From Terriglobia bacterium (GTDB lineage: Bacteria; Acidobacteriota; Terriglobia; Acidiferrales; UBA7541), in NCBI GenBank assembly GCA_963819015.1, contig CAWFUN010000007.1, positions 677,741 through 741,740 of the forward strand: a stretch of 64,000 bases of DNA. The letters are read 5' to 3'. Under the pieces are notes generated by a model, which ran no database searches, was not told the origin of the DNA, and saw only the letters and a program-made list of their open reading frames with translations. The position numbers were made by a program, and so were the translations under genes. Of the stretch, positions 19,631-44,048 are shown in pieces (position 1 is the stretch's first letter; each line of letters starts with the position of its first letter).

Positions 19631-20953
19631 TCAGTTTCCGGAGGCAGGAGCCCTCTCAAAAGACTCCGCGTCTGCCATTCCAGAGGCCAGAATAAGCGCT
19701 CGTGCGGCATCCCGCATCCGGGGCCAGTAGCGCCAAAACAGGAAAGCGCCGGCGAGGCAGCCCGCCCCGCCCAGTGCCACCGTGAACTGGGCGCCCCACT
19801 TGTTTGCAAGCGCCCCTGCGAACAGGGCTCCGAATGGCGCCATCCCGGCCATCATCATCGTGTAAAGCGCCATCAGTCTTCCGCGCAAGCGGTCGGGGGC
19901 CATCGCCTGTATGAGGGTATTCGTGCAGGCGAGTTGGAGCATCATGGCGTAGCCGGTCGGGACGAGGATGACGAGCGACACCCAGTACCACCTCGAATAT
20001 CCAAAGATAATCAGGCTCGCGCCAAAGGCTCCGGCTGACACCGCCACCCACCGCGCGAGACCCCTTACCCCCCTTCGAGTCGCCAGCGTCAGTGCTCCGA
20101 AAAGAGCGCCCACGCCCGTTGCGCCCATCAACCAGCCGAGCGCCTGCGCTCCGCCATGCAAGACGTGATCCGCGAAGATGGGCATCAGCACCGCGAACGG
20201 CATGCCCACCAAACTGGCCAGCCCAATCAGCAGGAGCAACGCCCAAATCGGCGCCGTCCCGCGGGCAAAGCGAAATCCTTCCACGAGGTTATCGAGCGCC
20301 GACTGTTCGTTCTCGCGCTCGGCCGGTTTTTCGATCCGCATCATGAAGAGCCCGATGATCACGGCGATGTAACTCACGGCGTTGGCGAAGAAACACCATC
20401 CTTCCCCAATCGTAGCCACCAGGATGCCGGCGATGGCCGGGCCGACGATTCGCGCACCATTGAACATCGAGGAGTTCAACGCGATCGCGTTCATCAGGTT
20501 TTCGCGGCTCACCATCTCGATGAGAAACGCCTGCCTCGCGGGAATGTCGATGGCGTTGACTACGCCGAGCAGCGCCGCCAGGACCACGATCTCCCAGACC
20601 GTCAGGTGGTGCGTCAGCGTCATCGCCGCCAGGATGAACGCCAGGATCATCGACGCCGTCTGCGTCCCGATGACCACCTTCTGCCGGTTCCAGCGATCCG
20701 CCACCAGACCGCCGACTGGCGCAAACACGAATATGGGGAATTGGCTGGCAAATGCAACGGTCCCGAGCAGCAGCGATGAACCCGTCATGCGATAGACCAA
20801 CCAGGACTGCGCCACGGTCTGCATCCAGGTCCCAATCAGAGAGATCATTTGTCCGCTGAGGAAAAGCTGAAAATTCCTGTGCCGCAGCGAGCGAAACGTC
20901 GTCCGGCTCCAGTGCGGCCGCGCCAGTTCTTCGATTTGGGTTTCGCGAGCCAT
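19631..20953 (-). CDS. MFS transporter (EntS/MFS_3-like)
   Basis: 440 aa, 12 predicted TM segments; motifs GLVADRWNRQK and LGVVNAIDIPARQAF typical of MFS family 3 exporters. Confidence 0.85.
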   Translation of the reverse strand: MARETQIEELARPHWSRTTFRSLRHRNFQLFLSGQMISLIGTWMQTVAQSWLVYRMTGSSLLLGTVAFASQFPIFVFAPVGGLVADRWNRQKVVIGTQTASMILAFILAAMTLTHHLTVWEIVVLAALLGVVNAIDIPARQAFLIEMVSRENLMNAIALNSSMFNGARIVGPAIAGILVATIGEGWCFFANAVSYIAVIIGLFMMRIEKPAERENEQSALDNLVEGFRFARGTAPIWALLLLIGLASLVGMPFAVLMPIFADHVLHGGAQALGWLMGATGVGALFGALTLATRRGVRGLARWVAVSAGAFGASLIIFGYSRWYWVSLVILVPTGYAMMLQLACTNTLIQAMAPDRLRGRLMALYTMMMAGMAPFGALFAGALANKWGAQFTVALGGAGCLAGAFLFWRYWPRMRDAARALILASGMADAESFERAPASGN

Positions 20954-23640: not shown

Positions 23641-25204
23641 TTACTTGCGAAGGGCGGCTTGGATTTCTTCAACCAGGGCCAGAATATGCCGCTCCTTAGC
23701 GCATAAGTCGTCTACGAGTTTCCCGGGTGGCATGTGCTCAAAGTCTTCTTTGGCATTCGGGTTCTTGATGTCGAGATTGGCGGATACAACCGCACCCTGT
23801 TCATCGTACTTCAGAACAGTCGAGACGGGCACTTTCCAGGCAAGCTCGTTCTCTTGGCGTTTGCCCCACCACTCTAGGCACGGCTCAAATTCCTCGAATC
23901 GCATGGTTTGTGTTTTCGTGTAATTTTTCCGGCCCTCGGGGAGGGGTTGCTCGTAATACCAAATCTCCTTGGTTGGTCCCGAGCGGTCAAAGAAGAGAAG
24001 ATTTGTCGGGATATTCGTATAGGGTGCGAAAACTCCGTTCGGCAATCGGACGATCGTATGGAGGTTGAATTCTTTGAGAAGCTCTTCCTTGATGCGCGCG
24101 CAAATACCGTCGCCGAACAGTACGCCGTTCGGCACAACCATGCCGCAGCGGCCCGGCTTTGCGCCTCCCACCGGGCGGCGAAGTTTGCGCATGATGAGCT
24201 GGAGGAATAGAAGGGCGGTCTCGGCGGTCTTCTTGTCCTCGGGGAAATTCGAGAGGATCCCGCGCTCTTCCTCGCCGCCAAAGGGCGGATTGGTCATGAT
24301 GATGTCCACGCGGTCCTTGTCCCCGATTTCGCGCAAGGGAAAGCGGAGGGCGTTTTCTGGATCAATGTCCGGCGATTCCAGGCCGTGGAGCAGGAGGTTC
24401 ATCTGGCATAGCAGGTAAGGAAGCGACTTCGGTTCGATTCCGAAAAGGGTGCCCTTCTGCAGCCGATTGAAGTCTTCCGTCTTCTTGCATTGCTCTTGCA
24501 GGTGCGTAAATGCTTCGACGAGAAAGCCGCCCGTGCCCGCCGCAGGGTCGAGGATGGTTTCGCCCAGGCGGGGATTCAAGACGGAGACGATGAATTTGAC
24601 AACGGGACGCGGCGTGTAGAATTCACCGGAATCGCCCGCCGAGTCTCGCATTTCGCGGAGCATGGACTCGTAGAGCAAGCCTAGCGTGTGGATTTCATCT
24701 TTGGACGTGAAGTGGATTTCATTGATTTTGTTGACCACATCGCGGAGGAGGTAGCCGTTGGTCATGCGGTTGAACGTGCCCTGGAAAACCTTGGCGATCA
24801 CGTCGCGGCGGTCACCGTTTGCGCTGCGCAGCGAACGCAGATAAGCAAAGAGGCCCGTCGCCACGCTTGCCGTCCGGGCGGATGGCTTCGTCCTGATTGA
24901 TGAAGGCGATTAGCTCTGGGCCGGTGATGCCCATCGGGTTCGCAGCCCAATCGCGCCAGCGGTAGGGCGGTTCGATGGCGGGGCGGAAGCGCTTGCCGGC
25001 GAGTTTGGCTTCTTCGGCGCGGATGCTCTCCATGTCATCAAGGAACTTGAGGAACATGATCCAGGTGAGCATCGGCAGGCGGTCAAGGTCGCCGTTGAGG
25101 CCTTTGTCCTTGCGCATGATGTCGCGGCAGGATTTGACAATGGAAGCGAGCTGCTGGGCGGTGGATTGCGGGAGTTCCTTGTTGCTGTTTTTTGTTCGGG
25201 CCAT
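23641..25204 (-). pseudogene. hsdM: Type I R-M methyltransferase subunit HsdM, interrupted by a +1 frameshift in a GGG run (~24854-24856)
   Basis: N-terminal HsdM_N domain in ORF 24812..25204 (...FINQDEAIRPDGKRGDGP then nonsense). The catalytic part is in ORF 23641..24864 (GLFAYLRSL...NPPFG...), offset by one nucleotide. Removing one G from gacGGGcct restores ...KRGDGLFAYLRSL. Confidence 0.75.
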
Positions 25205-27522
25205 AGGTGTCTAGTTAGGGCTGCGTAGAGGAGCGTCTGCAATTCGTCCACGGCCGCGCGCAGCATTTCCGCGCCGCCGAACATTTGCGAAATCTCCATC
25301 ACGCTGCCTCGATCTGAAATCGGCGGCACTTTCAGAATCTCCGGGATGGCGAATTGCGCCGTGCCATAGTCTACATACTTATCGAGAATATCGTGCAAGA
25401 CTTCGCGGGCTTTTTCGGAATACCGCTCGAAGAAGGCCTTCTGTTCTTTCCGAAGCCGTTCGGCGCGCTCTCGGCGCGTGCGAATCGGGGCGCTGTAAGC
25501 GACCTGGCAGAGAAGATCGAACGGGTCCGCGTCCGGTTGGTTTGATGCAGCGATGAGTTCTTCGAGCGCAATGCCGCGCTCTTCCAGGGCCTGAATGATT
25601 TCAGCGCGTTGGTCGGCGTCAGACCATTTTGAGCGGAGATCCGCCGCGGAGGGGCACATACTCGCGCACTTTCTCGCCCGTGTAGTCCGTGAAGCGGACG
25701 ACGCGAAGCTGCTTGCCTTCGGCATCCAGTTCGGAAACGAAGTGGGCCACGATTTCGATGGAACCCTGGTCCACGTAAAATTTGCGGGGCGCTTGTTCCT
25801 TCTTGCCTCCGGGTTCGAGGATTTGCGGCGGCAAGGGATCGGCGATGACTTCCTCGGGCTTTTCGATGTCGGCTTTGACGTTCTCGCCTGCGGCGTTCAT
25901 TTCCTCGACGGTCACCAAAGCGGGTTCGCCATCGAAATCGGGATCGGAGAAAAGGCGCGTGGCGCTTCCGGTGTAATCGAGGATGTTGAAAAAGAGCTTG
26001 CCGTAGTCGTCCTTGACGCGGGTGCCGCGTCCGATGATCTGCTTGAATTCGGTCATCGAGTTGATGATGCGAGCGATGACGATGTTCTTGCAGGTTTGAA
26101 CATCCACGCCGGTGGTCAGAAGTTGAGAAGTAGTGACAATCGTTGGGGTTGCAGTCTCAAGCTCCATGAAGCGGTCTAAGTGGCCGCGTCCCGTTTTGCC
26201 TTCATCCGCGGTGATGCGGACAACGTAATCCGGGTATTGCTGGACCAAATCCGCGTTGAGATTGTTGAGAGCGTGGCGCATGTCTTCGGCGTGTTCCTGG
26301 TCAACGCAAAAGACGATGGTTTTGTCGAATCTCCCATTCGCTTTCAGAAAATCGGTGAGATTGCGGGCGATGGTTTCGGTGCGAGGGAGGAGAGAGACTT
26401 TGCGCTCAAAATCCTTGGTGGTGTATTCGGCGTCCGGGATTTCGCGCCCTAAGCGGTCAAGCTGGCCACGATTCGGCCGCCAGCCAACGGAATCGGCGCT
26501 GGTGACGATGCGATGGACGCGATAGGGCGCCAGGAAACCGTCTTCGATGCCCTGCCGCAAGCTGTAGGTGTAGAGCGGATTGCCGAAGTAGAGATACGTG
26601 TCGCGGTTGTCTTCGCGCTTCGGGGTGGCGGTCATGCCGAGCTGGAAGGCAGGCTCGAAATACTTCAGGATATCTTTCCAGTTGGAATCGTCGGCTGCGC
26701 TGCCGCGGTGGCACTCGTCCACGACGATGAGGTCAAAGAAATCCCTCGGGTAGTCACGGTAAAGGCCGGGGCGGCGTTCGTCTTTGGCGATCGCCTGATA
26801 GGTCGCGAAATACATCTCGCGGCTCTTGATGGCCTCGCCCTCGATCTTGTGCCGGGCGTCGCCAAAGGGGGTAAAGATTTTGTCCTTGGGGTCGTCCACG
26901 AGGATGTTGCGGTCGGCAAGATAGAGAATGCGAGGACGGCGTGCTGGATCACCAGTCCGATTCCATTTGGTGTTCCAGAGTTTGTAGCAAATCTGGAAGG
27001 CGACGACGGTCTTGCCGGTGCCCGTGGCAAGGGTGAGAAGAACGCGCTTCTGGCCCTGAAGAATGGCGCGGATGGCGCTGTTGATGGCGATCTCTTGGTA
27101 GTAGCGCGGCGATTTTCCGGAGAGATGGTAGTACGGGGTGAGAAGGCGTTCGACGATCTGGCTGGGGATGTTTTCGCCGTGCTTGAGGCGCTGCCAGAGT
27201 TCGTCGGGAGACGGGAAGCTTTCGAGAGTGCTGTTCGAGGCCGGTCAGTGAAATCGTGCTCGACGATGCCGTGGCCGTTGGTGGAGTAGGCAAACTTCAG
27301 ACCAAGGATTTGTGCGTACTCCATCGCCTGGCCGAGACCATCGGCGGGTTTCTTGTAGTCGGCCTTGGCTTCAACGATGGCGATTGCAAAGTCAGGGCGG
27401 TAGCGGAGGAGATAGTCGGCGCGCTTCTGTTTGCGGCGGATCGTGCGGTTGCCAGCGACGACGATCCGGCCATCGGTGAAAGTCCGCTGCTCGTTGATGT
27501 GGTCGTCCGTCCCAGCCTGCAC
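25204..27522 (-). pseudogene. hsdR: Type I restriction enzyme R subunit HsdR (EcoEI-like C-terminal domain family), with at least two frameshifts (~27240-27250 and ~25650-25655)
   Basis: Three consecutive frames carry collinear HsdR sequence: the N-terminal nuclease domain (ORF 26665..27522, real up to NGHGIVEHDFT); the helicase core (frame of 25619..26899, which extends upstream to STLESFPSPDELWQRL...YYQEIAINSAIRAILQGQKRVLLTLATGTGKT, VVDECHR, QLLTTGVDV, QIIGRGTR); and the C-terminal domain (ORF 24910..25725 from SAADLRSKWSDADQRAEIIQALEERG... to ELQTLLYA). That frame then reads through the hsdM start with no stop. Confidence 0.75.
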
Positions 27523-27654
27523 GCGTAGAGCTTCGGGAGGACATATTTTCGACAGGTGTCTGCTTCGGTGAGTAAAGGCATGCCTCTGATATCAGCGCCG
27601 CTCGAATTACGACGGCGAATAGTATGGGTTCGAGTAATGCAGGATAACACGCCG

Positions 27655-27712
27655 AGCGGGGGGTGAGGCAGAGAGGTCCCTCACTTCGTTCGGGATGACA
27701 ACGCTGGGGAGG
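27655..27712. repeat. partial copy of the 10479-10583 palindromic element at the right edge of the R-M island
   Basis: agcggggggtgaggcagagaggtccctcacttcgttcgggatgacaacg shares agcgggtgagg, ttcgttc and ttcgg[a/g]atgacaac with the element at 10479-10583; it has an internal hairpin gtgagg/cctcac. Confidence 0.3.
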
Positions 27713-27739
27713 GCGAGCGGATGGGGCGCGGAGAAAGGC

Positions 27740-28483
27740 TTACGGCGCGGGCTGGGTCTTGCTCGGCGGGAGCAAGGTCCGGCGCAGTAGCATTCCCAGC
27801 GCGGCCATCGCGAACGTAACGCCCCAATAGACTCGCATGGGATGCGCCAACTGGAACGTGAAGGCAAGCGCCACGCCTCCGGTGCCGAAGGAAAACCACC
27901 AAAACTCACCCAGAAAGCCGTCGAGCCAGTGCGGCGGATTCCCGGCCGATGGCACGCGCGGCCACAGCGACGGGATAAATCGAGGCACAGCTTTGCAATA
28001 GGCGCGGTACGACTCCCCTTGCGCCGCACTCAGTTCCTTTTCCTCGTGGGAAATGAGCCGTAGGCAGAAAATCAGCAAAGCGAAAACGAGAACGAGGAAC
28101 CCTGTCCGGCTCGCCAACAAACCGACCCCCGCGCCCGCAATGACGTTTCCGAGATACAGCGGATTGCGGACGTAGCGGAACGGCCCGTCGGCCAACAGGC
28201 GCTCGGCGTGGACGCGCTTGTCGTGCATCACTTCGGTCTTCAGGTAGGACGTCCCCCACGCCCGGATCGCTCCACCCAGAAACACCAGCGCGGCAGAAAC
28301 GAGAAACGCAATGCGCACCCACGTGTCCACTGAAAGGCGCGGATCGCGATGCGCCAGCTTTTCCGCCAGGAATAGTACGCAGGTCTCGCGGTCAAAGGTG
28401 TAGCAAGCGAACGCCAGGAAGAAAATTCCCATGAAAATCCAGAACCGGTGATGAAACTCGAAGGGAGCTTCTTTTGATTCCAC
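27740..28483 (-). CDS. isoprenylcysteine carboxyl methyltransferase (ICMT/PEMT) family membrane methyltransferase
   Basis: 247 aa, multi-TM, with the RYVRNPLYLGNVI and HEEKEL motifs characteristic of ICMT-family SAM-dependent methyltransferases. Confidence 0.7.
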   Translation of the reverse strand: MESKEAPFEFHHRFWIFMGIFFLAFACYTFDRETCVLFLAEKLAHRDPRLSVDTWVRIAFLVSAALVFLGGAIRAWGTSYLKTEVMHDKRVHAERLLADGPFRYVRNPLYLGNVIAGAGVGLLASRTGFLVLVFALLIFCLRLISHEEKELSAAQGESYRAYCKAVPRFIPSLWPRVPSAGNPPHWLDGFLGEFWWFSFGTGGVALAFTFQLAHPMRVYWGVTFAMAALGMLLRRTLLPPSKTQPAP

Positions 28484-28640
28484 ATGGCCTCCGGGCTGTC
28501 GCTACAGCGTACGCCTCTGCCCCGCAGGAGTTTCACGCGTTCGCGCGATTCGCGCAACCCCTATGCGCCCAAATCCACTCGGCATAGTGCGCTTGTCAAA
28601 GAGATGTTGCGATGCGAATGCGCGGACAGAATTGCCCGCG

Positions 28641-29810
28641 TTACTCCGTGAAGACGATGCCCACCGCCGCTTGATCTTTCTCCGGCCCCGGCTCGATGCG
28701 CACGACGTACGCCCGCAGCCGCATCGGCACGTTTTCCTGCCCGGGCTCCGCTGTGCTTTCGATCATCACGTGCAGCTCGGACTGCAGCTTCGGGCTATGG
28801 TCCAGGTAGATCATCGCGCCGTGCAAACTCAAATTGCGGATGACGGTGTCTTCCTCGAACGCCAGCCCGTCCCCCGTAAACCCGGTGACGTGCGCGCGGA
28901 AACTCGCTTCGCGCCGCAGCCCTTCGCGTACGGTCGGGATCACGACCCCGAACTTCCGCTCCCCCAGCGTGAGCACCATGCCCTCCGTCGCCGCCCATAC
29001 GCTCTCGAATTGCCCGCGCGCCTCCCTCAGAATCTCGTCCACGGCGCGGTCGGAGGAATCCGGATCGTGGTGAAACAGCACGAGGTTTCGCACGCCCACT
29101 TCCTGCGCGATGCGCACGCCCTCTAGCCAGCTCGAATGTCCCCAACCCTTGCGCGCCGTCGCGAGCTGCTGCGGCGTGAATTGCGCGTCGTGCACGAAGA
29201 TATCCGCGCCCTCCGCCAGCTCCCGCAAACTCTTGTCGAGCTTGGGGTCGCCCGGCTCGTTGTCCGTGGCATACACGACCGTTCCCACCGGCGTCTCAAA
29301 CCGGAATCCCAGGCATCCCTGCGGGTGATTCAGCCAGCGCGTGGTCACGCGCGCCCCGCACACCTCGAACCGCTCGCCGCCGTCCACTTCGGTGAATTCG
29401 CGCGACGCCGACATCGCGCTCAAATCCACGGGAAAATACGGATTGGCCATCTGCGCTTCGAAGACGCGCTTCAGACTGTCCGGCCCCAGCGATGGCGAGC
29501 GAAAACTGTAGAAGTGAAAACGATTCTCTCCCGCGTAGAGCGGCGAAAAAAATGGAATCCCCTGAATGTGGTCCCAGTGGTAGTGCGTCAGGAAGATGTG
29601 CGCGTTGGTTTCACGGCCGCCGCGATTCGCGGTCCAGTGCTTTCCGAGCGTCCGCAACCCGGTTCCGCAATCGAGAATGAACCGCGCGCCGGACGGAGTC
29701 TCCAGCTCCAGGCAAGGCGTGTTCCCGCCGTAGCGCCACGTCGCGCGGTCAACGGTCGGAGTGGATCCCCGCACGCCCCAGAAACTCAATTTGGCGATGG
29801 CTTCGGGCAT
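28641..29810 (-). CDS. MBL-fold metallo-hydrolase fused to a C-terminal PilZ domain
   Basis: N-terminal beta-lactamase-fold signature FLTHYHWDHIQG (HxHxDH) and ATDNEPGD. The C-terminal ~110 aa (RREASFRAHVTGF...RNLSLHGAMIYLD...RAYVVRIE) has the PilZ pattern (RxxxR ... D/NxSxxG). Confidence 0.65.
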   Translation of the reverse strand: MPEAIAKLSFWGVRGSTPTVDRATWRYGGNTPCLELETPSGARFILDCGTGLRTLGKHWTANRGGRETNAHIFLTHYHWDHIQGIPFFSPLYAGENRFHFYSFRSPSLGPDSLKRVFEAQMANPYFPVDLSAMSASREFTEVDGGERFEVCGARVTTRWLNHPQGCLGFRFETPVGTVVYATDNEPGDPKLDKSLRELAEGADIFVHDAQFTPQQLATARKGWGHSSWLEGVRIAQEVGVRNLVLFHHDPDSSDRAVDEILREARGQFESVWAATEGMVLTLGERKFGVVIPTVREGLRREASFRAHVTGFTGDGLAFEEDTVIRNLSLHGAMIYLDHSPKLQSELHVMIESTAEPGQENVPMRLRAYVVRIEPGPEKDQAAVGIVFTE

Positions 29811-29915
29811 GTCCCCACGTTTCGGATTTTCTTCCGCTGCTCCGCACCCGGCGCCGAACCCTTCGGAAACTCGGGGATTCAGCGCGTTTTTTCATCGTAA
29901 GCAGCGCCGAAAGCC

Positions 29916-29929
29916 AAGTCAATTGACTT
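29916..29929. promoter_or_regulatory. perfect 14-bp palindrome AAGTCAATTGACTT in the divergent promoter region between the MBL-PilZ gene and the CDF transporter
   Basis: Exact dyad symmetry. A T6 tract and a ttcggaaactcgggg run lie just upstream, 75-90 nt before the CDF start. Confidence 0.25.
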
Positions 29930-30005
29930 TGCGGCCGGGCGTGCGCAGCGCGCATATCCGCAGTCCGGCAGGACGTTTCCCGCCTTCCCGCAGTAGAATG
30001 GCAAC

Positions 30006-30953
30006 ATGCACGTGCACGCCGGCGAACACGATCACGCGCACGGCCCCCACGATCACGGCGCGGTAATTGGCCGGGGCGTCTTTGCCGGCGCGATGGCCGC
30101 CACCCTCGCGCTCGTCGCGGCGGAACTCGCGGGGGGCTACTTTGGCCATTCCATCGCTTTGCTGGGCGACGCCGTTCACAAATTCTCCGATGTTCCCGCG
30201 TTGCTCATCTCCTGGCTGGCCGCGGTGTGGTCCCAGCTCCCCGCGGACTCGCAGCGGACGTACGGCTACCGCCGCGCGGGCACGCTCGCCGCGTTCATCA
30301 ACGGCATCCTGCTCGTGTTCGTCGCGCTGGGGCTGTTCTACGAAGCGTTCGATCGCTTCCGCCATCCCGTCGCCGTGCGGGAAAGCTGGATGATTGTCGT
30401 CTCGCTCGGCGCGCTCGTCGTGAATGGCGGCATCACGCTGGCCCTGATTCGCGGACGCCACGACCTCAATCTGCGCAGCGTGCTCGTTCACAATCTGGGT
30501 GACGCGCTCTCCAACGTCGGCATTCTCATCGGCGCGATCGCGATTCGCGCGACCGGCGCGCGCTGGCTCGATCCCGCCATTGGAGCCGCAATCGGCGTGC
30601 TGGTCCTGTGGTCCACGTGGGGAATCTTGAAGGAGTCGGGGAATATCCTGCTCGAAGGTTTGCCGAAAGGCCTCAACGTCGAAAATGTCGCGCGAGCGAT
30701 CCTAAGCGTCGAGGGCGTCCGCGAAATCCACGATATTCACATCTGGACGATCGGCACGGGCCTGCATGCCCTCTCGTGCCACGTCCGCATTCCGGATATG
30801 CACATGGCCGAAAGCGAAAAAATCCTCGCCGCCATCCAGCAGCGCCTCGCCTCGGAATTTCACATCACGCACGTTACCGTGCAGCTCGAGCGCGCCGGCC
30901 TACCCAAAGACGCCGGCCTCTTCATGCCGGAACCCTTCCAGCCGGTGGAATAG
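30006..30953 (+). CDS. cation diffusion facilitator family transporter (CzcD-like) with a His-rich N-terminus
   Basis: 315 aa; His-rich start MHVHAGEHDHAHGPHDHG, 6 TM segments, HxxxD motifs (HKFSD, HNLGD), and a C-terminal cytoplasmic domain. Confidence 0.9.
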   Translation: MHVHAGEHDHAHGPHDHGAVIGRGVFAGAMAATLALVAAELAGGYFGHSIALLGDAVHKFSDVPALLISWLAAVWSQLPADSQRTYGYRRAGTLAAFINGILLVFVALGLFYEAFDRFRHPVAVRESWMIVVSLGALVVNGGITLALIRGRHDLNLRSVLVHNLGDALSNVGILIGAIAIRATGARWLDPAIGAAIGVLVLWSTWGILKESGNILLEGLPKGLNVENVARAILSVEGVREIHDIHIWTIGTGLHALSCHVRIPDMHMAESEKILAAIQQRLASEFHITHVTVQLERAGLPKDAGLFMPEPFQPVE

Positions 30954-30989
30954 CCGGACGGCCGCCTTGCTGCGCCGCGATTACGTCAG

Positions 30990-33011
30990 TCAGGGCTTTG
31001 CCGGCGTCTTGTCTGGGAGCGCGGGAGCCCCGCTCTTCTCCGCGGGTGCTTTGCCGCCCTTCGTTCCGTCGCCGCCGCTCCCCGCGAGGAAACGCATCGC
31101 TGTCGCTGCGAGGCCGTCCATCGCGCCGCCGCCCGATCCGCCGGTCACCAGAATGTCCGGCACGAATTTCGACATGCCTTGCGATAACGACGTGATCACG
31201 TTCACCAGCGCCGTGGCGTTTGATCCCAGCGCCTCCACCTGCGCCTGGTAACCCTTCGCCCGCGCGAGTCCCACCGCTTCCACTTCCGCTCCGCGCGCCG
31301 TGCCGGTCTGGCGGATGTACTCCGCCTCGCCGCGCGCTTCTTCCGTGCGCGCATTGGCGTTGTTCGTCTTGATGTCCACGCCGACCTTCGATTTCGCGAG
31401 GTCGGACTGCATGTCCGCCGTGCCCTTGGAGTTTTCCATGGCGATGCGCTCTTCCTGCGCCGAGCGCTGCTTCTTGTACGTCTCGATCTCCTGGTTCGCG
31501 ACCTCGCGCTGCGTCAGCACCGTGACCAGCGCCTCCGGCAGAATCACGTCCTGGATGTACACGCCGCGCGTCTCCACGCGGTACTGTTCCAGTTGCTCCT
31601 TGATGTGCTCGAAACCCTCCTCCTGCACCTGCTGGCGTGTCTCGATGAAGCGGATGGCCGGCATGCTCTGCAATTTGTTGCGGAAGTGGTTGCCCACCGC
31701 CGCCTGCAACACTTCGTTCACGAGGTTCTTCATCGTGCCGACCATCGAGATCACGCGCGGCGCGTTGACGTCCGGCACGTGAATCTGCACCTGCAAATCA
31801 ATGTTGAAGACGAATCCTTCGTTGCTCTTGGCCACGATCTGCTTCAATTCCGCGTCCAGATTGTGCGCATCGGACACCGCGTCCGCCCAATTCAGCGTCA
31901 GGATCGAGGTCGGCACGATCTCCGCCTGGTAGCAGCGCGGATTCAGCGGATATTTCCCCGTCCGCAGCGGCTCTTCCCAGATTCCGCGATGTCCCGGATG
32001 CACCAGCGAGCCGAATTTGAAATCCGAGCCCGAAGTGTCTTGCGTGGGCAATCCTACGTACGCCTTGATCACCGCGACCTGCCCCTGCTGCACGACGAGC
32101 ATACCCACAAGCTCGACGCTCACAAGAAACGGATTGAGCGCGTACGCGCCATACAGCAGCGGGTCGTGCTGCAAGCCGATCCGCCCGCCATTGTCGAGAA
32201 ATCCCTGAAAATCCTGATAATTGTTGTGTAGGTTGTTTTTGTTTCCGAGCAGCACTTCGATCACTTCGCCTTCTTTGGCGTTCGCCTGTTCCATCGTGGC
32301 GATGTCGGCGAAGCCCCCGAGCCGGCCCGCGATGTCGCCCGAAGGCAGCGGGTCGCCTTCGTACGTGGTCACGATTCCCACAACGTCCATCAGCGCGCGC
32401 TCTTTTCCGTACTGTTGCGGCTCGATTCGCACGAGCTCGAGCTGCTCCGGGCGCAATCCGAACGCCGCAGCAGTAAGATGCCCGGACCTGCCGCCCGTGG
32501 CCCGCAATTCCGGCGAGATCGGCAGCCCGTACACCTGGCTCTTCGTCACCACCAGAAAGCCGACCGGGTGAATCGGCGCCAGCGTTCCCGGCGAAAGCAC
32601 CGGCCGCTGCACGCCCTTCTGTCCGCCGCCCGTCACGAACCCGCGCAAATCCGAAAAATTCCCGAATGCTTTCTTGTACACCGCCGATTTCGCTCCGATC
32701 GGCAGCGGCGCGCCCACTTGCGCAATCACCACGCCCACTTCTCCCGCCTGCACTTGCACCCACGGGAATTTCTCCACCTGATAGATCAGCCAGGCCTTCC
32801 AACGCAGCCCGGGCATCAGCATATCGGCCTGATAACCCGCTTCCCCGCGAAACGCGATCGCGTTGTCATTGGAGAGTTTCTTGAACGAGATGCGCTTCAG
32901 CACCAACCCGACTTCGGTCGGCCCCACGCGCCGAAAGGACATCAGGACGTAGAGAACGGCGAACAGCCCGACGGTGTAAATCCAAGTGGAATAAGCAAGT
33001 CCCAATAGCAT
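30990..33011 (-). CDS. flotillin-like SPFH/band-7 domain protein
   Basis: Start taken at MLLGLAYSTWIYTV (GAGGTG 7 nt upstream); the track ORF starts 10 codons earlier. N-terminal TM, SPFH domain, then a long E/A/Q-rich coiled coil (AQEERIAMENSKG...EEARGEAEYIRQTG) typical of flotillins/YqiK. Confidence 0.8.
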   Translation of the reverse strand: MLLGLAYSTWIYTVGLFAVLYVLMSFRRVGPTEVGLVLKRISFKKLSNDNAIAFRGEAGYQADMLMPGLRWKAWLIYQVEKFPWVQVQAGEVGVVIAQVGAPLPIGAKSAVYKKAFGNFSDLRGFVTGGGQKGVQRPVLSPGTLAPIHPVGFLVVTKSQVYGLPISPELRATGGRSGHLTAAAFGLRPEQLELVRIEPQQYGKERALMDVVGIVTTYEGDPLPSGDIAGRLGGFADIATMEQANAKEGEVIEVLLGNKNNLHNNYQDFQGFLDNGGRIGLQHDPLLYGAYALNPFLVSVELVGMLVVQQGQVAVIKAYVGLPTQDTSGSDFKFGSLVHPGHRGIWEEPLRTGKYPLNPRCYQAEIVPTSILTLNWADAVSDAHNLDAELKQIVAKSNEGFVFNIDLQVQIHVPDVNAPRVISMVGTMKNLVNEVLQAAVGNHFRNKLQSMPAIRFIETRQQVQEEGFEHIKEQLEQYRVETRGVYIQDVILPEALVTVLTQREVANQEIETYKKQRSAQEERIAMENSKGTADMQSDLAKSKVGVDIKTNNANARTEEARGEAEYIRQTGTARGAEVEAVGLARAKGYQAQVEALGSNATALVNVITSLSQGMSKFVPDILVTGGSGGGAMDGLAATAMRFLAGSGGDGTKGGKAPAEKSGAPALPDKTPAKP

Positions 33012-33089
33012 GACAGGCACCTCACTTCGCGCTGCCCGCATCCTGCGCGTTTGCCGCTCTGCGTGTCAAGTTGGCGCAAGCCGCCCCGC

Positions 33090-34823
33090 ATGGACGCTCG
33101 CGCGCACGCGCCATATACTCGTCGCGTGAGCGCCTCTCCGGATCTTCACGCATTGCTCCGCCGTTACTGGGGCTACCATGAATTTCGTCCGTTGCAGGAG
33201 AGGATCGTCCGCAGTCTGCTCGGCGGCCACGACGTCTGCGTCGTGATGCCAACCGGCGGCGGCAAATCGCTCTGCTACCAATTGCCCGCCGCGACGCTCT
33301 CCGCGCAAACCGTGGTCGTGCTCTCGCCATTGATCGCGCTGATGCAGGATCAAGTCGCGCAACTCACTCAGGTCGGCATCCCCGCCGCATTCCTTAACAG
33401 CACGCTCTCGGAACACGAGCAGTCCACCCTAATCCGCCGCGCCCGCGCGGGAAGCTATCGCCTCCTTTATCTCTCTCCCGAGCGCCTCGCCCGCCAGGAC
33501 ACCATCGAATGGCTCCGCCAAGTCCCCGTCTCGCTTTTCGCCATTGACGAGGCGCACTGCATTTCCGAGTGGGGCCACGAATTCCGCCCGGAGTACCGCA
33601 AGCTGGCCAGCCTGCGAGAGCATTTTCCCAATTGCCCCATCGCGGCCTTCACCGCCAGCGCCACGCGCCACGTCCGACACGACATCATCGAGCAGCTCCG
33701 CCTACGCGATCCCGATAAGTACATCGCCAGCTTTCATCGCCCCAATCTGCGTTATGTAGTGAAGGAGTGCGACGCACGCACGCAGGGCACTCTGCTCGTG
33801 CGCGCCTTGCGGGCGCACACCACCGGCAGCGTTATCGTCTATGCGCCGACGATCGCGCGCGTCGCGCAAACCGTTGCCTTGCTCGAAGCAGCAGGAATCC
33901 CCGCCATCCCCTACCACGGGAGAATGGACGCCCGCGAGCGCCGCGACAATCAGGAGCGCTGGATGTCCAACGAAGCGCGCGTCCTGGTCGGCACGATCGC
34001 ATTCGGTTTGGGCATCAATAAGGCCGCCGTGCGCGCCGTCATCCATCTCTCGCTGCCGAAATCCATCGAACAGTATTATCAAGAGGCCGGGCGTGCCGGA
34101 CGCGACGGCCAGCCCGCCGATTGCATCCTCCTGTGGCAAAAATTCGACGTGGGCCTGCTCACGCATTTCATCCAGCAAATTGAAGACCCCGAGGAAAAAG
34201 AGCGCGCATGGAAGCGTTACCACGCCATCCGCCACTTCGTGGATACGCCCGTCTGCCGTCATCGCCAGATCTGTCTCCACTTCGGCGAAATTCGCAAAGA
34301 GCATTCCTGCAACGCCTGCGACGTCTGTGGCTGCGGCCTAGAATGGCTCGATGAGCCCGTAATCGCCGCACGCGCAAAGCGCAAACGCAGGCGCACGAAA
34401 GCGCCCTATACGCCGCAAGCGCCCGCGACGAAAGCAAGAAAAACTCCCGGTCAACTCCTGGGACGCCCTCGTCAGGGCACGGCTTCAGCAGTGCCGAAAA
34501 GCCTCAAGACCTCAGGGGTTTTAACCCCTGAGGCCAGCGCAATGGACGGTCGCACTTCTGTTGAGACGCGTCCTGGCAGCACCGCCGCCGTGGTTCCCCC
34601 ATCCGATCTCTTTGAAGCCCTCCGCCAATGGCGCCAAAAAGCCGCCAGAGAACAGAATGTCCCAGCCTTCGTCGTAATGCACGATACGACTCTGGAAGAG
34701 ATTTGCCGCACGCGCCCCCGCACGCTGGCCGAACTGTACGAAGTCCACGGCATCGGCGAACGAAAGTTGGAAATGTACGGCAAGCAAATCCTGGACACTT
34801 TGAAGAACTCCTTGCCTTCGTAG
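33090..34823 (+). CDS. recQ: ATP-dependent DNA helicase RecQ
   Basis: YWGYHEFRPLQERIV, PTGGGKSLCYQLPA, DEAHCISEWGHEFRPEY, the zinc-binding CRH..CNAC.DVC cluster and a C-terminal HRDC domain. Start chosen at the MDARAH ATG; an alternative is at 33051. Confidence 0.9.
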   Translation: MDARAHAPYTRRVSASPDLHALLRRYWGYHEFRPLQERIVRSLLGGHDVCVVMPTGGGKSLCYQLPAATLSAQTVVVLSPLIALMQDQVAQLTQVGIPAAFLNSTLSEHEQSTLIRRARAGSYRLLYLSPERLARQDTIEWLRQVPVSLFAIDEAHCISEWGHEFRPEYRKLASLREHFPNCPIAAFTASATRHVRHDIIEQLRLRDPDKYIASFHRPNLRYVVKECDARTQGTLLVRALRAHTTGSVIVYAPTIARVAQTVALLEAAGIPAIPYHGRMDARERRDNQERWMSNEARVLVGTIAFGLGINKAAVRAVIHLSLPKSIEQYYQEAGRAGRDGQPADCILLWQKFDVGLLTHFIQQIEDPEEKERAWKRYHAIRHFVDTPVCRHRQICLHFGEIRKEHSCNACDVCGCGLEWLDEPVIAARAKRKRRRTKAPYTPQAPATKARKTPGQLLGRPRQGTASAVPKSLKTSGVLTPEASAMDGRTSVETRPGSTAAVVPPSDLFEALRQWRQKAAREQNVPAFVVMHDTTLEEICRTRPRTLAELYEVHGIGERKLEMYGKQILDTLKNSLPS

Positions 34824-35006
34824 TGGCGAGCGATTTCCGCGAGTTCCGCTCAACACGGGCCGCAAGCCAATCGTCCGATTCTTTGCTTGCTTCCCTGCCT
34901 CCTTGCATCCTTGCCTCTGCCCAGCCCGCCACTCGCCACTCATCACCGGCCACTCCCCCGTGGGTCCACACGCATGCCCCGGACAGTGCTCGCTTGGTGG
35001 TAGAAT

Positions 35007-35747
35007 TTGCCCGCCTTGGCTAAATCTGCGACCAAATCAGACTTTCGTCTGCTCGCTGAGTTTCGGAAGCTTTTCGAAGGGCGACTGTACAAACACCGCG
35101 CTTCGAATCAGGGCGACTACGTCGCTATGCAACTTTACGAGGACCTTTTCACTATCGATAGATCTCCCAAGCTGGTCAAGGAAATTAAGGGCGGAATTCT
35201 GGTATTGAACGTAGCGAATAAGCTTCAGGGCATCCGGGCGAGGCGCGGAGACGGGACCCTGGGAGAGATCGTTCCGGGAGAAACACCAATCCGAGACGCA
35301 GGTTACGCCGTCGCGCGGGGCAAGATCGCAACGGTGGTAATTGGCGTGGAGGTAAAAATCCTCGCCAAGGCAATGATCAAACAGATAGACAGGGTTACCA
35401 ACGATCTCCGCAATCAGGTGGTCCAATTTCGAAGGGGCGGTGGTCAGCCGTTCTGCGTCGGAATTGTTGGAATAAATCAAGCCGACCACTACGTCAGCTT
35501 CGAAGGTGACAGGCCTTGGCCTACAACGGGGAAAGGCGGCTATCTACATCCCATCCAAGAGGCAGCGGAAGCAGAGCGGAGGCTGCTCGAGCTAGCTGCT
35601 CCCGCATACAGCGAGTTTCTTGTGCTTCGCTACAAAGCAACCAACGAGAAACCGTGTCCTTTTCAATGGGTGGATTTTGGCGAAACACGCCTGAACTATG
35701 CAGCAGTCCTGACCCGAATCAGCAGTGGCTTCCAGCAAAGATCGTAG
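35007..35747 (+). CDS. putative Type II restriction endonuclease (PD-(D/E)xK fold), family not recognised
   Basis: 246 aa with no family match I can name. Candidate catalytic motif D(AGYAVARGKIATVVIG)VEVK (D...ExK). Convergent with, and ending 6 nt from, a beta-class DNA MTase. Lower GC than its flanks. Confidence 0.5.
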   Translation: MPALAKSATKSDFRLLAEFRKLFEGRLYKHRASNQGDYVAMQLYEDLFTIDRSPKLVKEIKGGILVLNVANKLQGIRARRGDGTLGEIVPGETPIRDAGYAVARGKIATVVIGVEVKILAKAMIKQIDRVTNDLRNQVVQFRRGGGQPFCVGIVGINQADHYVSFEGDRPWPTTGKGGYLHPIQEAAEAERRLLELAAPAYSEFLVLRYKATNEKPCPFQWVDFGETRLNYAAVLTRISSGFQQRS

Positions 35748-35752
35748 GAACC

Positions 35753-36763
35753 TCAGCCGGCGGCGAAGCGCACGGTCGCCGTGGTAAAAAGCGACGAAGT
35801 ATCTTCTGCAATTCGTTTGCGGGCGAGTTTGAAGTAATGCTCGTCAATCTCGTAACCGATGCTGTTCCGACCCCATTTCGCAGCCGCGACGGTCGTCGTT
35901 CCCGTGCCCAGGAATGGGTCAAGCACCGTGTCACCGACGAAGCTGAACATGCGAATCAGTCTCTCAGCGAGCTCCGTCGGAAATGGCGCAGGGTGATGCT
36001 TCGTCGAAGCGCCCGTCAGACCGTTCCAGATTTGCTGGAACCATTTCTTGTGATTTTCCGCCGAAATCAAACTTAGAATTTTCGTCGGAATGTCGGGAGC
36101 GCGATACCCGCCCGGTTTGCGCTCCATCAGGATAAACTCGATGTCGTTCTTGATCACCGCGTTCGGCTCGTAGGGTTTGCCGAGAAATCCCGAGCCGCCT
36201 TCCACCTCATAGGCCGCATTGGCGATCTTGTGCCAGATAATCGGCGCGAGATTGTCGAATCCAATTTTCCGGCAATGCTCTTGGATGGACGCATGCAGCG
36301 GAACAACCGTGTGTCGACCTCCGTTCTCTCTGCGTGAGAGACACACGTCCCCCACCACGCAAATCAAACGCCCGCCCGGGACCAGGGCTCCGAAACTGTG
36401 CTTCCAGACTTTGTCTAGTTCATGAAGGAATTGGTCGTAATCCTCAATGTGACCAAGCTGCGAGTCGTTGTCCCTGTACTCCTTCAGCGTCCAATAAGGC
36501 GGCGACGTCAATATGAGATGCACGCTCCCGGGCTCGACGCTCTCCATCTCGCGCGCATCGCCCAAATGCAGTTCGTGTCTTGTGGGAATCGATTGGACGG
36601 CCCGCTCAATCCGCCGCACCGACTGTTCGTCCTTCGCCAGCCGCGGAATATCCTCCTGCGCGTCGCCCAGTTCTCGCAGCTCAGTCGGAACAAATGAAGA
36701 CAGGTCAGCAATCGTCGTTTCCGGCGAATCATCAATCGGCTTGCGCTTCGCGGCTACATGCAT
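35753..36763 (-). CDS. DNA methyltransferase, beta-class (N4-cytosine/N6-adenine); SPPY catalytic motif precedes the FxGxGTT SAM motif
   Basis: 336 aa; LILTSPPYW (motif IV) near the N-terminus and DPFLGTGTTTVAA (motif I) near the C-terminus, a circularly permuted beta-class order. SPPY is typical of N4C MTases (inference). Confidence 0.85.
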   Translation of the reverse strand: MHVAAKRKPIDDSPETTIADLSSFVPTELRELGDAQEDIPRLAKDEQSVRRIERAVQSIPTRHELHLGDAREMESVEPGSVHLILTSPPYWTLKEYRDNDSQLGHIEDYDQFLHELDKVWKHSFGALVPGGRLICVVGDVCLSRRENGGRHTVVPLHASIQEHCRKIGFDNLAPIIWHKIANAAYEVEGGSGFLGKPYEPNAVIKNDIEFILMERKPGGYRAPDIPTKILSLISAENHKKWFQQIWNGLTGASTKHHPAPFPTELAERLIRMFSFVGDTVLDPFLGTGTTTVAAAKWGRNSIGYEIDEHYFKLARKRIAEDTSSLFTTATVRFAAG

Positions 36764-37221: not shown

Positions 37222-37267
37222 GACCGCCGGCGCGGCGGCTCAGCTAGATTTGCGAGGAGGTTGGATC

Positions 37268-37618
37268 GTGGCACTGAAACTGTCGGATCGGCAAGTGGAT
37301 GGAGTGGAAGTGGTGGCACTCGAAGGACGAATCGTGCTCGGCGAAGAGAGCAACGCGCTTCGTGAAAAAGTGAAGGGTTTTCTCGCGGCCGGCAAAAAGA
37401 ACATCGTGCTCAACATGAGCAACGTCACCTACATTGACAGCGCGGGGCTCGGCACCCTGGTCGCGTCGCACCACAGCGCGAAAACGCAAGGCGCGAGCCT
37501 CAAGCTGTCCAATCTCGGCCAAAAATTTCAGGAAGTCTTGCAGGTCACGAAGCTGCTGACCGTCTTCGAGGTCTACGACTCCGAAGCCGCCGCCATCCGC
37601 AGCTTCAGCGGCAAGTAG
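37268..37618 (+). CDS. STAS-domain anti-sigma-factor antagonist (SpoIIAA-like)
   Basis: GTG start 7 nt after AGGAGG. VALKLSDRQVDGVEVVALEGRIVLGEESNALREKV...NMSNVTYIDSAGLGTLV, with a conserved Ser in the DSAGLG context. Confidence 0.8.
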   Translation: MALKLSDRQVDGVEVVALEGRIVLGEESNALREKVKGFLAAGKKNIVLNMSNVTYIDSAGLGTLVASHHSAKTQGASLKLSNLGQKFQEVLQVTKLLTVFEVYDSEAAAIRSFSGK

Positions 37619-40797: not shown

Positions 40798-41181
40798 CTA
40801 GCTTGTGGGGGTGGCTTTGCCTTCCAAAACGGAGGCTGACCAGTCATCGGGCGGGAAGGAGATGTGCCAGAAATCCGGCGCGGCCTGAAGGAATTCAACT
40901 GCCACTTGGGTCTTGCCGCCGTCGGAGTGGCCAACGTAGACGACGCGGCATTCCTGCGGCGTAGTTGAACCGCGGCTGGTGAGATGCAGCGATTGCGCCT
41001 CCTTCACCCGTGCGGTCATAGCAATCAATGCGCCGTGAGCGTTCACTACGAGCGTAATGGCGTCTTCCTGAAATTCAGTCCCGTCGGCCTTCTTCCCGCT
41101 GACCGACACGGGCACACTGATGATCACGCGCTGGCTGCGGCGCTTGTTGCTGGAACCAGCGTAATTGGGGGGCGGGGCCAT
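40798..41181 (-). CDS. PilZ domain protein
   Basis: 127 aa; KRRSQRVIISVPVSV (RxxxR) and LVVNAHGALI (D/NxSxxG-like) spaced as in the PilZ c-di-GMP binding module. Confidence 0.6.
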   Translation of the reverse strand: MAPPPNYAGSSNKRRSQRVIISVPVSVSGKKADGTEFQEDAITLVVNAHGALIAMTARVKEAQSLHLTSRGSTTPQECRVVYVGHSDGGKTQVAVEFLQAAPDFWHISFPPDDWSASVLEGKATPTS

Positions 41182-43397: not shown

Positions 43398-44048
43398 CTA
43401 CGACGCCACGCTCCGCTGCTGAAAGCAAAGCAGAATCAGATCCGCCCGACGGCGCACGCCGAACTTGCTCAGCAGATTCGAGACGTGAAACTTCACGGTT
43501 CGCTCCGAGATGTTCAGCTTCCCGGCGATTTCCTTGTTCGCCAGGTTCTCCAGCAGGCCGCTGAGCACCTCTTGCTCGCGGCGGCTCAATTCACTCGAAA
43601 CCTCGACCTGCACTCGCCGATTGCCCGGCCCGCTCAGGACGGAATCCACAAAACCGGAGAGCACCGACCGCGGAACCCAAAAACCTCCGCCCGCAACCAG
43701 CGGCAGCGCGCTATCCAAGTGGTCGCGCACTTCGGCGTACGTGAGCAACCCTTTGGCCCCGAGCCGCAGCAGCGCATAGCTCTCGGCCACATTCAGCTTT
43801 TCAGCAACAACCAGAATTCGCGCACCGGGGTAATGCTCCAGGATATTCGAGAGCAGCGCGCCGGCCGCGGCCCGCGCGACGTGCGCATCGACCACGAACA
43901 CTCCGGCTCGCGGCACGCTCATGCGCCGCAAATCCGGCCCAAGCGAAGATTCAAGCAGCCGCGGAATCAGCTTATAGCCCGAACCAGAAAGCACACGCTC
44001 AAATTCGCCCAGGACCAACGGATGCGGCGAGAGCAGACACACCGGCAT
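43398..44048 (-). CDS. LuxR-family transcriptional regulator with a degenerate receiver-like N-domain
   Basis: Internal ATG at 44048 of ORF 43398..44561. The C-terminal HTH LSRREQEVLSGLLENLANKEIAGKLNISERTVKFHVSNLLSKFGV is the LuxR type. The N-domain keeps VFVVDAH but lacks the acidic DD pair of canonical receivers. Confidence 0.7.
   Translation of the reverse strand: MPVCLLSPHPLVLGEFERVLSGSGYKLIPRLLESSLGPDLRRMSVPRAGVFVVDAHVARAAAGALLSNILEHYPGARILVVAEKLNVAESYALLRLGAKGLLTYAEVRDHLDSALPLVAGGGFWVPRSVLSGFVDSVLSGPGNRRVQVEVSSELSRREQEVLSGLLENLANKEIAGKLNISERTVKFHVSNLLSKFGVRRRADLILLCFQQRSVAS

Follow-up and report, generated by a model that had tools for sequence, protein, structure and literature searches.

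The gene at positions 28641-29810 (minus strand) of the 64-kb stretch of DNA that was analysed (the window) codes for a 389-aa protein in which an MBL-fold hydrolase is joined to a C-terminal PilZ domain, and our results show that its catalytic and ligand-binding residues are intact and under purifying selection. The best explanation is that this MBL-PilZ protein is a cytoplasmic, catalytically intact, binuclear-metal phosphodiesterase that is gated by c-di-GMP and acts most likely on cAMP/cGMP, a reading that we hold tentatively and to which we give a little less than an even chance. We infer c-di-GMP binding, the allosteric coupling between the domains, its sign (activation or inhibition) and the substrate.

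The ORF is complete from ATG to TAA. At least ~8,000 homologues were found, the best 120 of which are all full length and 70-96% identical, and the GC3 of the gene (0.82) matches that of genuine coding sequence elsewhere within the window; the ORF is therefore not a chance one. An exact-sequence look-up of the 389-aa protein matched no record. The fusion proposed in the initial annotation is borne out, since both domains score above their Pfam thresholds, but its description as uncommon holds for characterised proteins only: the architecture is abundant in uncultured soil Acidobacteriota and near-universal in the Acidoferrales/Terriglobia, a major uncultured soil lineage of at least several hundred species-level genomes. 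To our knowledge, almost nothing is known about signalling in this lineage. The architecture is absent from two PilZ surveys, and a literature search on the fusion of an MBL fold with PilZ found no paper, an absence that is not proof, as many subscription-journal papers lay outside the search.

The MBL hydrolase domain and its relatives

The phosphodiesterase domain covers residues 1-290 (28941..29810; this and all other features of the gene given below are on the minus strand) and has the alpha-beta/beta-alpha sandwich fold. Pfam Lactamase_B_2 (PF12706) matches residues 43-248 with E=2.5e-19 and 70.1 bits against a gathering cutoff of 27, and the match spans profile positions 2-200 of 200. 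Residue conservation was counted over 86 sequences of the MBL-PilZ family, in which all five MBL metal motifs (D; HxHxDH; H; D; H) are present and D47, H76/H78/D80/H81, H162, D183 and H247/H248 show little or no variation. Motif II, THYHWDH (T75-H81, 29568..29588), is the HxHxDH metal site that had been recognised at the outset, and it matches the [T/S]HxHxDH of atypical class-II PDEs; H76, H78, D80 and H81 are each found in 86/86 sequences and residue 75 is always S or T (49/49). The metal ligand H162 of motif III (29325..29327) and the bridging ligand D183 of motif IV (29262..29264) are equally invariant (86/86 each), and in motif V, H247-H248-D249 (29064..29072), H247 and D249 occur in all 86 sequences and H248 in 85. 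G224-H-S-S227 (29130..29141) is the counterpart, on alignment, of GHSS in E. coli RNase Z/ZipD (2cbn); H225, which is counted among the metal ligands, and S226 are present in 86/86.

This MBL subfamily has FWGVRGSTPT (residues 10-19, 29754..29783) as its N-terminal signature, at the start of a conserved loop that may act as a substrate-binding lid. Residues F10-G15 are kept in all 86 sequences, and among 30 stand-alone MBL relatives G12 and G15 never vary and R14 is found in at least 90%. The model predicts this loop with low confidence, with a pLDDT below 50 at residues 15-22.

Within the MBL superfamily, the hydrolase domain most probably falls in the phosphodiesterase branch of RNase Z, YhfI and Rv1339, and its original placement near RNase Z and class-II cyclic-nucleotide PDEs is supported. 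The [T/S]HxHxDH signature within a PF12706 domain defines the atypical class-II PDEs Rv1339, CpdA and YhfI (PMC9293780). Rv1339 of M. tuberculosis, CpdA of C. glutamicum and YhfI of B. subtilis share with the MBL-PilZ protein the MBL fold, the signature and the lack of an RNase Z arm, and YhfI (6kns) is matched colinearly by the family profile from end to end (E=3e-15), with a Foldseek target TM of 0.78. However, these enzymes are only ~20% identical to the MBL-PilZ protein and are single-domain, sensor-less proteins of ~250-270 aa, lacking both the N-terminal FWGVRGS and the C-terminal PilZ domain.

Relationship to RNase Z raises the alternative that the MBL domain cleaves RNA, in 3' processing of the RNase Z/BN type or in the decay of small RNAs or oligoribonucleotides, with PilZ tying RNA turnover to c-di-GMP. 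We consider this improbable. RNase Z, ZipD (RNase BN) and ELAC1 hold tRNA with a flexible arm (exosite) that is missing here: the arm region has 21 aa (174-194) in the MBL-PilZ protein against 66 aa (154-219) in ZipD, and profile alignments to RNase Z break into two stretches at this point. RNase Z equivalogs gave 47-95 bits against cutoffs of 250-290, among them TIGR02651 (75.4 bits against 293) and NF000801 (73.5 against 252). RNase Z enzymes also differ from the MBL-PilZ protein in not being known to have a regulatory domain. The recurrent fusion of this MBL core to REC, STAS, GAF, histidine-kinase and cyclase domains is typical of second-messenger enzymes and not of RNases.

A metabolic role is about as improbable. 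Here the protein would be a small-molecule phosphodiesterase, either a PhnP-like cyclic sugar-phosphate diesterase, as its JGI name has it, or a phosphoester hydrolase of another kind, and c-di-GMP would act as a metabolic regulator. The match to PhnP is weak (profile E=1e-7; TIGR03307 30.7 bits against a cutoff of 272), phn genes are absent nearby in all loci examined, and a metabolic neighbourhood is found in one clade only, which is not that of the window.

In favour of the phosphodiesterase branch, the profile NF041851, 'cyclic nucleotide-degrading phosphodiesterase', matches over its full length but below its cutoff. The MBL-PilZ protein scores far under that family cutoff (400 bits), and it also differs in setting from phage Apyc1, a small single-domain anti-defence enzyme, as there is no sign of a phage or defence context at its gene. 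None of the NCBIfam equivalog cutoffs was reached by the MBL-PilZ protein or by ten stand-alone relatives.

A PilZ barrel without the C-terminal helix

The PilZ domain (residues 295-389, 28644..28928) is made of an RxxxR loop and a six-stranded beta-barrel, without a C-terminal helix. Pfam PilZ (PF07238) matches residues 302-388 with E=8.7e-7 and 29.7 bits, above the gathering cutoff of 22.5; the initial annotation had named a failure at the PilZ threshold as a point that would refute its proposal. The match spans only profile positions 8-86 of 102, and in homologues the score ranges from 19 to 34 bits, with some under the 22.5-bit threshold.

The pattern RxxxR...(D/N)xSxxG that had first pointed to PilZ is near-invariant in the 86 sequences. 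The RxxxR motif, R295-E-G-L-R299 (28914..28928), forms the interdomain linker 5 residues past the last MBL strand and is the predicted c-di-GMP switch; this arginine switch, the other point on which the proposal had been made to depend, is present on alignment (R299 in 86/86, R295 in 84/86), and its linker neighbours at positions 294, 296 and 297 are variable. The second predicted c-di-GMP motif, N326-L-S-L-H-G331 (28818..28835), follows 27 residues after R299 and fits the canonical definition of Galperin and Chou, [D/N]hSxxG with a hydrophobic h (10.1101/814665): position 326 is D or N in 86/86, h is L, I or V, position 328 is S or T in 78/86 and Ala in the other 8, and G331 is kept in 85/86. 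Positional entropy at the PilZ contact sites is 0-0.3 bits against a linker mean of 2.15 bits. The PilZ motifs hold in a second MBL-PilZ clade (~45% identity), as do the metal ligands, and also in distant representatives. The AF2 model has two confident domains with the low-confidence RxxxR linker (pLDDT ~59) between them.

The long C-terminal alpha-helix of canonical PilZ is missing family-wide. The MBL-PilZ protein stops 2 residues past beta-6, and 80/86 sequences end in VFT[D/E]-stop. In the second clade the tails vary and most are rich in Pro, Gly and Arg, although a few could make a short helix of ~10 aa. In canonical PilZ this helix completes the hydrophobic core and pocket, and helix-less PilZ-related domains are classified as the non-binding xPilZ type, in which the motifs are lost (10.1101/814665). 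It could follow that the barrel no longer binds c-di-GMP and serves as a structural or protein-interaction module like xPilZ, leaving the enzyme c-di-GMP-independent, and the modest Pfam score, sub-threshold in some homologues, agrees with this. We regard it as quite unlikely, since xPilZ domains have lost the motifs whereas R295, R299, D/N326 and G331 are kept here at 98-100% in two clades. Searched against PDB by sequence, the PilZ domain on its own gave no match at E<=10, and PilZ structures were found by fold comparison only; the best of these was the c-di-GMP complex of an 85-residue PilZ, 80 residues of which align to the helix-less domain.

A compact PilZ receptor is known. PA0012/TssZ, of ~85 aa, is an experimentally confirmed c-di-GMP receptor (PMC10912698), and site-specific conservation together with this precedent suggests that the PilZ domain of the MBL-PilZ protein binds c-di-GMP. 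A helix-less PilZ with intact motifs puts to the test how ligand-binding PilZ domains are now defined by structure. The P. aeruginosa protein (PDB 8u0i) is 20% identical and differs in being a stand-alone adaptor that works by protein-protein interaction (HinK) and has no enzymatic partner domain. In BcsA cellulose synthase, Alg44, YcgR and PlzD, PilZ is joined to a glycosyltransferase or a motor-brake and not to a soluble MBL phosphodiesterase, and the MBL-PilZ protein differs from this group also in lacking the C-terminal helix.

Under the c-di-GMP-gated phosphodiesterase reading, c-di-GMP would bind the RxxxR loop, which is also the interdomain linker, and the [D/N]hSxxG face of the PilZ barrel. 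Binding could clamp the flexible hinge and shift the barrel against the MBL domain, and this shift may make the active site more or less accessible or alter the geometry of a dimer. With cAMP/cGMP as the substrate, the protein would link the turnover of a second messenger to the level of c-di-GMP. The same logic is found in eukaryotes, as Dictyostelium PdeD and PdeE are MBL-type class-II PDEs gated by cNMP-binding domains within the same polypeptide. The likeness lies in the allosteric nucleotide-binding domain placed on an MBL phosphodiesterase; the regulators there are cNMP-binding domains and not PilZ. Weighing against the reading as a c-di-GMP-gated phosphodiesterase are the loss of the helix, the replacement of S328 by Ala in 8/86 sequences, the equivalog scores below cutoff, the cyclase-free neighbourhoods of MBL-PilZ genes and the fact that the cyclase link described below comes from a paralogous branch.

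The MBL core and its links to signalling domains

The MBL core has ~8,900 representatives at 50% clustering, most of them stand-alone and many of them fused to signalling modules; among 30 long representatives, 27 include a PilZ, STAS, REC, GAF, PAS, histidine-kinase or cyclase domain. A fusion of the MBL core with REC and Guanylate_cyc domains was found in 9 clusters. Its gene comes last in an MCP-CheW-CheR-CheW-CheA-CheB operon, and a cNMP_binding gene lies close by. In a relative, MBL and REC-cyclase are encoded by two adjoining genes with a 4-nt overlap. The MBL part of the REC-cyclase fusion is 42% identical to the MBL-PilZ protein over residues 7-281 (E=3e-66); the cyclase link sits in a paralogous MBL branch and not in the MBL-PilZ clade itself. 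This fusion and adjacency with a REC-nucleotidyl cyclase is the one piece of indirect support for the predicted hydrolysis of 3',5'-cAMP or cGMP. A literature search on response regulators with an MBL output domain found none.

Another possibility is that PilZ captures or senses c-di-GMP while the MBL domain hydrolyses c-di-GMP itself, pGpG or another cyclic di- or oligonucleotide, which would make MBL an alternative to EAL and HD-GYP. A c-di-GMP receptor fused directly to a nucleotide-type phosphodiesterase speaks for it, as does the degradation of cyclic nucleotides by related MBL enzymes (Apyc1 and the NF041851 family). No EAL or HD-GYP domain occurs among the annotated ORFs of the window either, but this means little because only 64 kb of the genome is covered. 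However, the literature searched gave no earlier example of an MBL-fold enzyme that cleaves c-di-GMP, and the MBL core is mostly PilZ-free and has its link with a mononucleotide cyclase, not with GGDEF. We see little chance for this reading.

A broader version of the cAMP/cGMP phosphodiesterase reading is more speculative, and we think it rather unlikely to hold as a whole: the FWGVRGS-[S/T]HxHWDH core would represent a large unrecognised family of cyclic-nucleotide PDEs serving as outputs of signal transduction, and the MBL-PilZ protein of Acidobacteriota would be the first direct enzymatic bridge from c-di-GMP to cAMP/cGMP, with a helix-less but ligand-competent PilZ barrel packed on the enzyme, which takes the place of the helix. 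Cross-talk between c-di-GMP and cAMP/cGMP is mostly known from the control of transcription. If real, a cNMP phosphodiesterase gated by PilZ would join the two messenger systems directly and post-translationally, and the wider MBL core may make up a class of regulated cNMP PDEs that is missing in bacteria that are rich in class III cyclases and poor in recognised PDEs.

Genomic neighbourhood

Within the window, gene identities are given by Pfam matches only; a GC3-based caller mis-assigned several antisense frames. A CDF cation-efflux gene (30006..30953, plus strand; Pfam Cation_efflux and ZT_dimer) is divergent from the MBL-PilZ gene. It is adjacent and divergent in 80/85 related loci, is the sole conserved neighbour in the window's lineage, and stays paired with the MBL-PilZ gene in the window despite two flanking insertions. 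In the second clade CDF is absent and a transketolase and Dak neighbourhood is found instead; because of this replacement we take the CDF link to be lineage-specific synteny, and the transporter was rejected as a functional clue. No cyclase or cNMP-binding gene lies in the MBL-PilZ neighbourhoods of either clade.

The initial annotation had also drawn on two more stand-alone PilZ proteins and an EPS locus in the same window as an argument for c-di-GMP control. These are present: one PilZ ORF lies at 44188-44577 (plus strand, 38 bits) and another, which is sub-threshold (18.9 bits against a cutoff of 22.5), at 40798-41181 (minus strand), and an EPS-type locus extends from ~41.9 to 63 kb with genes for a UDP-glucose dehydrogenase, an acyltransferase_3, a pyruvyl transferase, a Wzx-like flippase, GT2 and Wzy_C. 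The argument itself carries no weight, since they are at least 11 kb from the MBL-PilZ gene and unrelated genes lie between. No Rfam match indicating a riboswitch or other RNA control was found at E<=1 within 27000-31500. A candidate sigma-70-like promoter, TTGACT-17-TACGAT (29894..29922, minus strand), lies ~84 nt 5' of the MBL-PilZ start codon and is a match to the consensus only, with 1 found against 0.3 expected.

The fusion gene and its hydrolase domain

The ORF at 28641-29810 (-) runs from ATG to TAA, codes for 389 aa with a GC3 of 0.82 and is a genuine gene, with a sigma-70-like promoter match ~84 nt upstream; no Rfam family matched in the 4.5 kb around it. The initial annotation described a metallo-beta-lactamase (MBL) fold hydrolase fused to a PilZ domain, and Pfam places both above cutoff, Lactamase_B_2 at aa 43-248 (E=2.5e-19, 70.1 bits vs 27) and PilZ at aa 302-388 (E=8.7e-7, 29.7 bits vs 22.5). 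The motifs that it named were all found where it had put them: THYHWDH at aa 75-81, RxxxR as R295-E-G-L-R299, and the second PilZ motif as N326-L-S-L-H-G331, 27 residues beyond RxxxR.

By sequence, by profile and by fold the hydrolase falls within the MBL superfamily's phosphodiesterase branch, in agreement with its earlier description as RNase Z/class-II cyclic-nucleotide phosphodiesterase-like, with matches to B. subtilis RNase Z, YhfI (E=3e-15, full length and colinear) and ELAC1. The [T/S]HxHxDH signature by which Thomson et al. define atypical class-II PDEs (Rv1339, CpdA, YhfI; PMC9293780) is also present in the MBL-PilZ protein, and all 49 sequences of an alignment have S or T at position 75. 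Cleavage of RNA is a less likely rival reading. The protein is no RNase Z: equivalog scores reach about a quarter of the cutoffs and the tRNA-binding-arm region is short, 21 aa against 66 aa in ZipD. No NCBIfam equivalog claims the protein or any of ten stand-alone relatives.

A PilZ domain with both motifs and no helix

An alignment of the protein with 85 fetched loci (86 sequences, partly redundant) showed invariant MBL ligands (H76, H78, D80, H81, H162, D183, H225 and H247) and confirmed the arginine switch of the PilZ part, with R299 kept in 86/86 and R295 in 84/86. D/N326 is present in 86/86 and G331 in 85/86, while position 328 is S/T in 78 and Ala in the remaining 8; the linker positions beside the arginines (294, 296 and 297) vary freely. 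In a 49-sequence alignment covering both this clade and a second one, mean positional entropy was 1.17 bits in the MBL domain, 2.15 in the linker and 1.83 in the barrel, with values of 0-0.3 bits at R295, R299 and G331. Such site-specific conservation is the pattern that would be expected of a functional ligand site. In P0167, a distant representative, the PilZ motifs are kept and the catalytic site is degenerate.

The improved AF2 model (49 sequences, pLDDT 85, pTM 0.75) has a six-stranded barrel at aa 304-387, with the RxxxR linker modelled at low confidence (pLDDT ~59). There is no C-terminal PilZ helix in this model or across the MBL-PilZ family, the sequence ending two residues past the last strand in 80/86; second-clade tails are variable and mostly Pro/Gly/Arg-rich, and a few could make a short helix of ~10 aa. 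For Galperin and Chou (10.1101/814665), a canonical PilZ consists of a barrel and a C-terminal helix, and xPilZ domains, which have no helix, have lost the binding motifs. Because the helix is missing, unlike in canonical PilZ, and the motifs are present, unlike in xPilZ, this domain is a hybrid. A non-binding PilZ is a less likely rival suggested by the missing helix, and the intact motifs argue against it. PA0012/TssZ is a confirmed receptor with its RxxxR at R5/R9 (PMC10912698), and by analogy a compact barrel could bind c-di-GMP; the MBL domain may offer a stand-in packing surface for the helix.

We favor, as a likely reading, a c-di-GMP-responsive phosphodiesterase. Binding of c-di-GMP at the RxxxR hinge and the face of the barrel would shift the barrel to a new position on the catalytic domain, as happens in other PilZ fusions. 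The full statement, a c-di-GMP-gated MBL phosphodiesterase acting on a cNMP, with cAMP or cGMP as the most likely substrate, is a tentative one that we doubt slightly more than we believe. No paper on an MBL-PilZ fusion was found in a literature search and database names are generic only; two known kinds of module meet here in an uncharacterised combination, in a large uncultured lineage, that is easy to test.

The MBL core with other signalling domains

A set of 1.84 billion cluster representatives, searched exhaustively, yielded 8,925 relatives of the MBL core, 1,492 of them at E<1e-30, which share FWGxRGS, HxHWDH, GWGHS and LFHHDP. The majority are stand-alone proteins of ~275 aa with 38-46% identity over aa 7-285. 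A signalling domain was present in 27 of 30 long representatives scanned: PilZ in 9 by Pfam (and in P0125 only from its motif and a full-length alignment), STAS in 5, REC in 4, GAF and histidine-kinase core in 3 each, PAS in 1, and REC with a class III nucleotidyl cyclase in 1. The core is N-terminal in histidine kinases (MBL-HisKA-HATPase, MBL-GAF-HK), and REC-MBL response regulators and MBL-STAS fusions also occur, in a set including P0148, P0182, P0204, P0150 and P0213. Its recurrence in these architectures suggests a broad, undescribed role of this MBL subfamily in signalling.

The MBL-REC-nucleotidyl cyclase fusion is found in 9 clusters, and its MBL part shares 42% identity with the window protein over aa 7-281 (E=3e-66). 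In one locus outside the window (L090, 1-8004) it closes an MCP-CheW-CheR-CheW-CheA-CheB operon, with a cNMP_binding gene close by, and in another (L089, 1-8393) the MBL and REC-cyclase genes are separate and adjoining, with a 4-nt overlap. The Che-like operon is complete and has the look of a chemosensory pathway whose output is a cyclic nucleotide and which carries its own candidate phosphodiesterase. Genes for C39-peptidase ABC exporters and a cNMP-binding protein come after its MBL/REC-cyclase end. Fusion with, and adjacency to, a cNMP synthase, in a GGDEF-EAL-like manner, is the best available, if indirect, substrate clue, drawn from a paralogue. Hydrolysis of c-di-GMP or pGpG is a less likely rival to which the PilZ domain itself could point, while the cyclase partner favors a cNMP.

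Distribution and genomic setting

The best 120 of at least 8,000 matches among 5.8 billion proteins were all full-length homologues (385-478 aa, 70-96% identity), named 'MBL fold metallo-hydrolase', 'PilZ domain-containing protein' or 'phosphoribosyl 1,2-cyclic phosphodiesterase'. At least 551 species-representative genomes encode a relative; the best 80 matches are full length (59-75% identity) and come essentially all from uncultured Acidobacteriota MAGs, labelled Acidoferrales/Acidiferrales, Acidoferrum, Terriglobia or gp2, with no cultured isolate among them. The architecture is also that of the second clade (~45% identity), some of whose members are MAG proteins labelled NC10/Methylomirabilales, and versions with a longer linker occur (among them P0133, P0134, P0141 and P0153). 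Several 60-70%-identical copies (L019, L034, L046, L053, L069, L076, L079) carry the MAG labels Dormiibacterota, Rugosimonospora, Limnocylindrales, Dongiaceae or Patescibacteria; as they are highly identical to Acidobacteriota copies, their contigs were probably binned or labelled wrongly, and horizontal transfer is the less likely explanation.

The window keeps the ancestral clade order of MFS (19631-20953), MBL-PilZ with the divergent CDF gene (30006-30953), STAS (37250-37618), DUF1015 (37639-38970), DUF3108, a small PilZ-like ORF and UDP-glucose dehydrogenase, and the CDF gene is adjacent and divergent in 80/85 loci. The second clade has a different set of neighbours: AP_endonuc_2, split transketolase, Dak1/Dak2 and G6PD. 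In three loci of the NC10/Acidoferrum-labelled clade (L086-L088) the gene lies 63-164 bp after co-directional split transketolase genes and faces Dak2/Dak1, with G6PD beyond in 2/3, a recurrent arrangement that hints, for this clade, at a connection with sugar-phosphate metabolism. A metabolic cyclic-phosphate diesterase, another less likely rival, finds no such setting in the window clade; since neighbourhoods differ between clades, none predicts function across the family.

Two insertions interrupt the order, one on each side: a PEMT gene with a low-GC type I R-M block, and an SPFH-RecQ-DNA methylase block. HsdM (23641-24864), in a lower-GC stretch (0.535-0.59), adjoins an hsdR apparently split into three overlapping ORFs at 24910-27522 (-): an N-terminal part without Pfam match (26665-27522, -), a ResIII/Helicase_C part (25619-26899, -) and an EcoEI_R_C part (24910-25725, -). 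The split implies two frameshifts, due to either a pseudogene or an assembly error, and the block is probably an inserted R-M island. The stretch at 30990-36763 holds SPFH/Band7 (683 aa), RecQ helicase, a 246-aa ORF without Pfam match and an N6/N4 DNA methylase; it separates CDF and STAS, ~1-2 kb apart in relatives, and is apparently a second insertion, one by which the CDF/MBL-PilZ pair was not disrupted.

The EPS locus and additional PilZ ORFs that the initial annotation placed in the same window do exist, but both are distant from it. Two large ORFs of the EPS locus, 48426-50852 (-, 808 aa) and 51270-52739 (-, 489 aa), had no Pfam match at E<=0.001. The conserved 127-aa PilZ-like protein at 40798-41181 (-) is sub-threshold in Pfam (18.9 bits), keeping RxxxR as RRSQR with a degenerate, shortened second motif (VNAHGA); its homologue in a related locus (L001, 448-831) is 47% identical, in both places the gene has DUF3108 and UDP-glucose dehydrogenase as syntenic neighbours, and a homologue lies upstream of the MBL-PilZ gene in 10/85 loci. 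The 129-aa PilZ ORF at 44188-44577 (+) scores 38 bits and has RxxxR and a C-terminal amphipathic helix, with the second motif altered. It is antisense to the 5' third of a LuxR/GerE ORF at 43398-44561 (-; 387 aa, sole domain at aa 324-377). The TTG-first rule probably set the start of this LuxR ORF wrongly, and the two may both be real genes. Two proteins with ASH/DUF1573/Cep192-D4-type Ig-like repeats, at 15877-16995 (+) and 17025-19307 (-; 760 aa, six repeats), are probably cell-surface or secreted.
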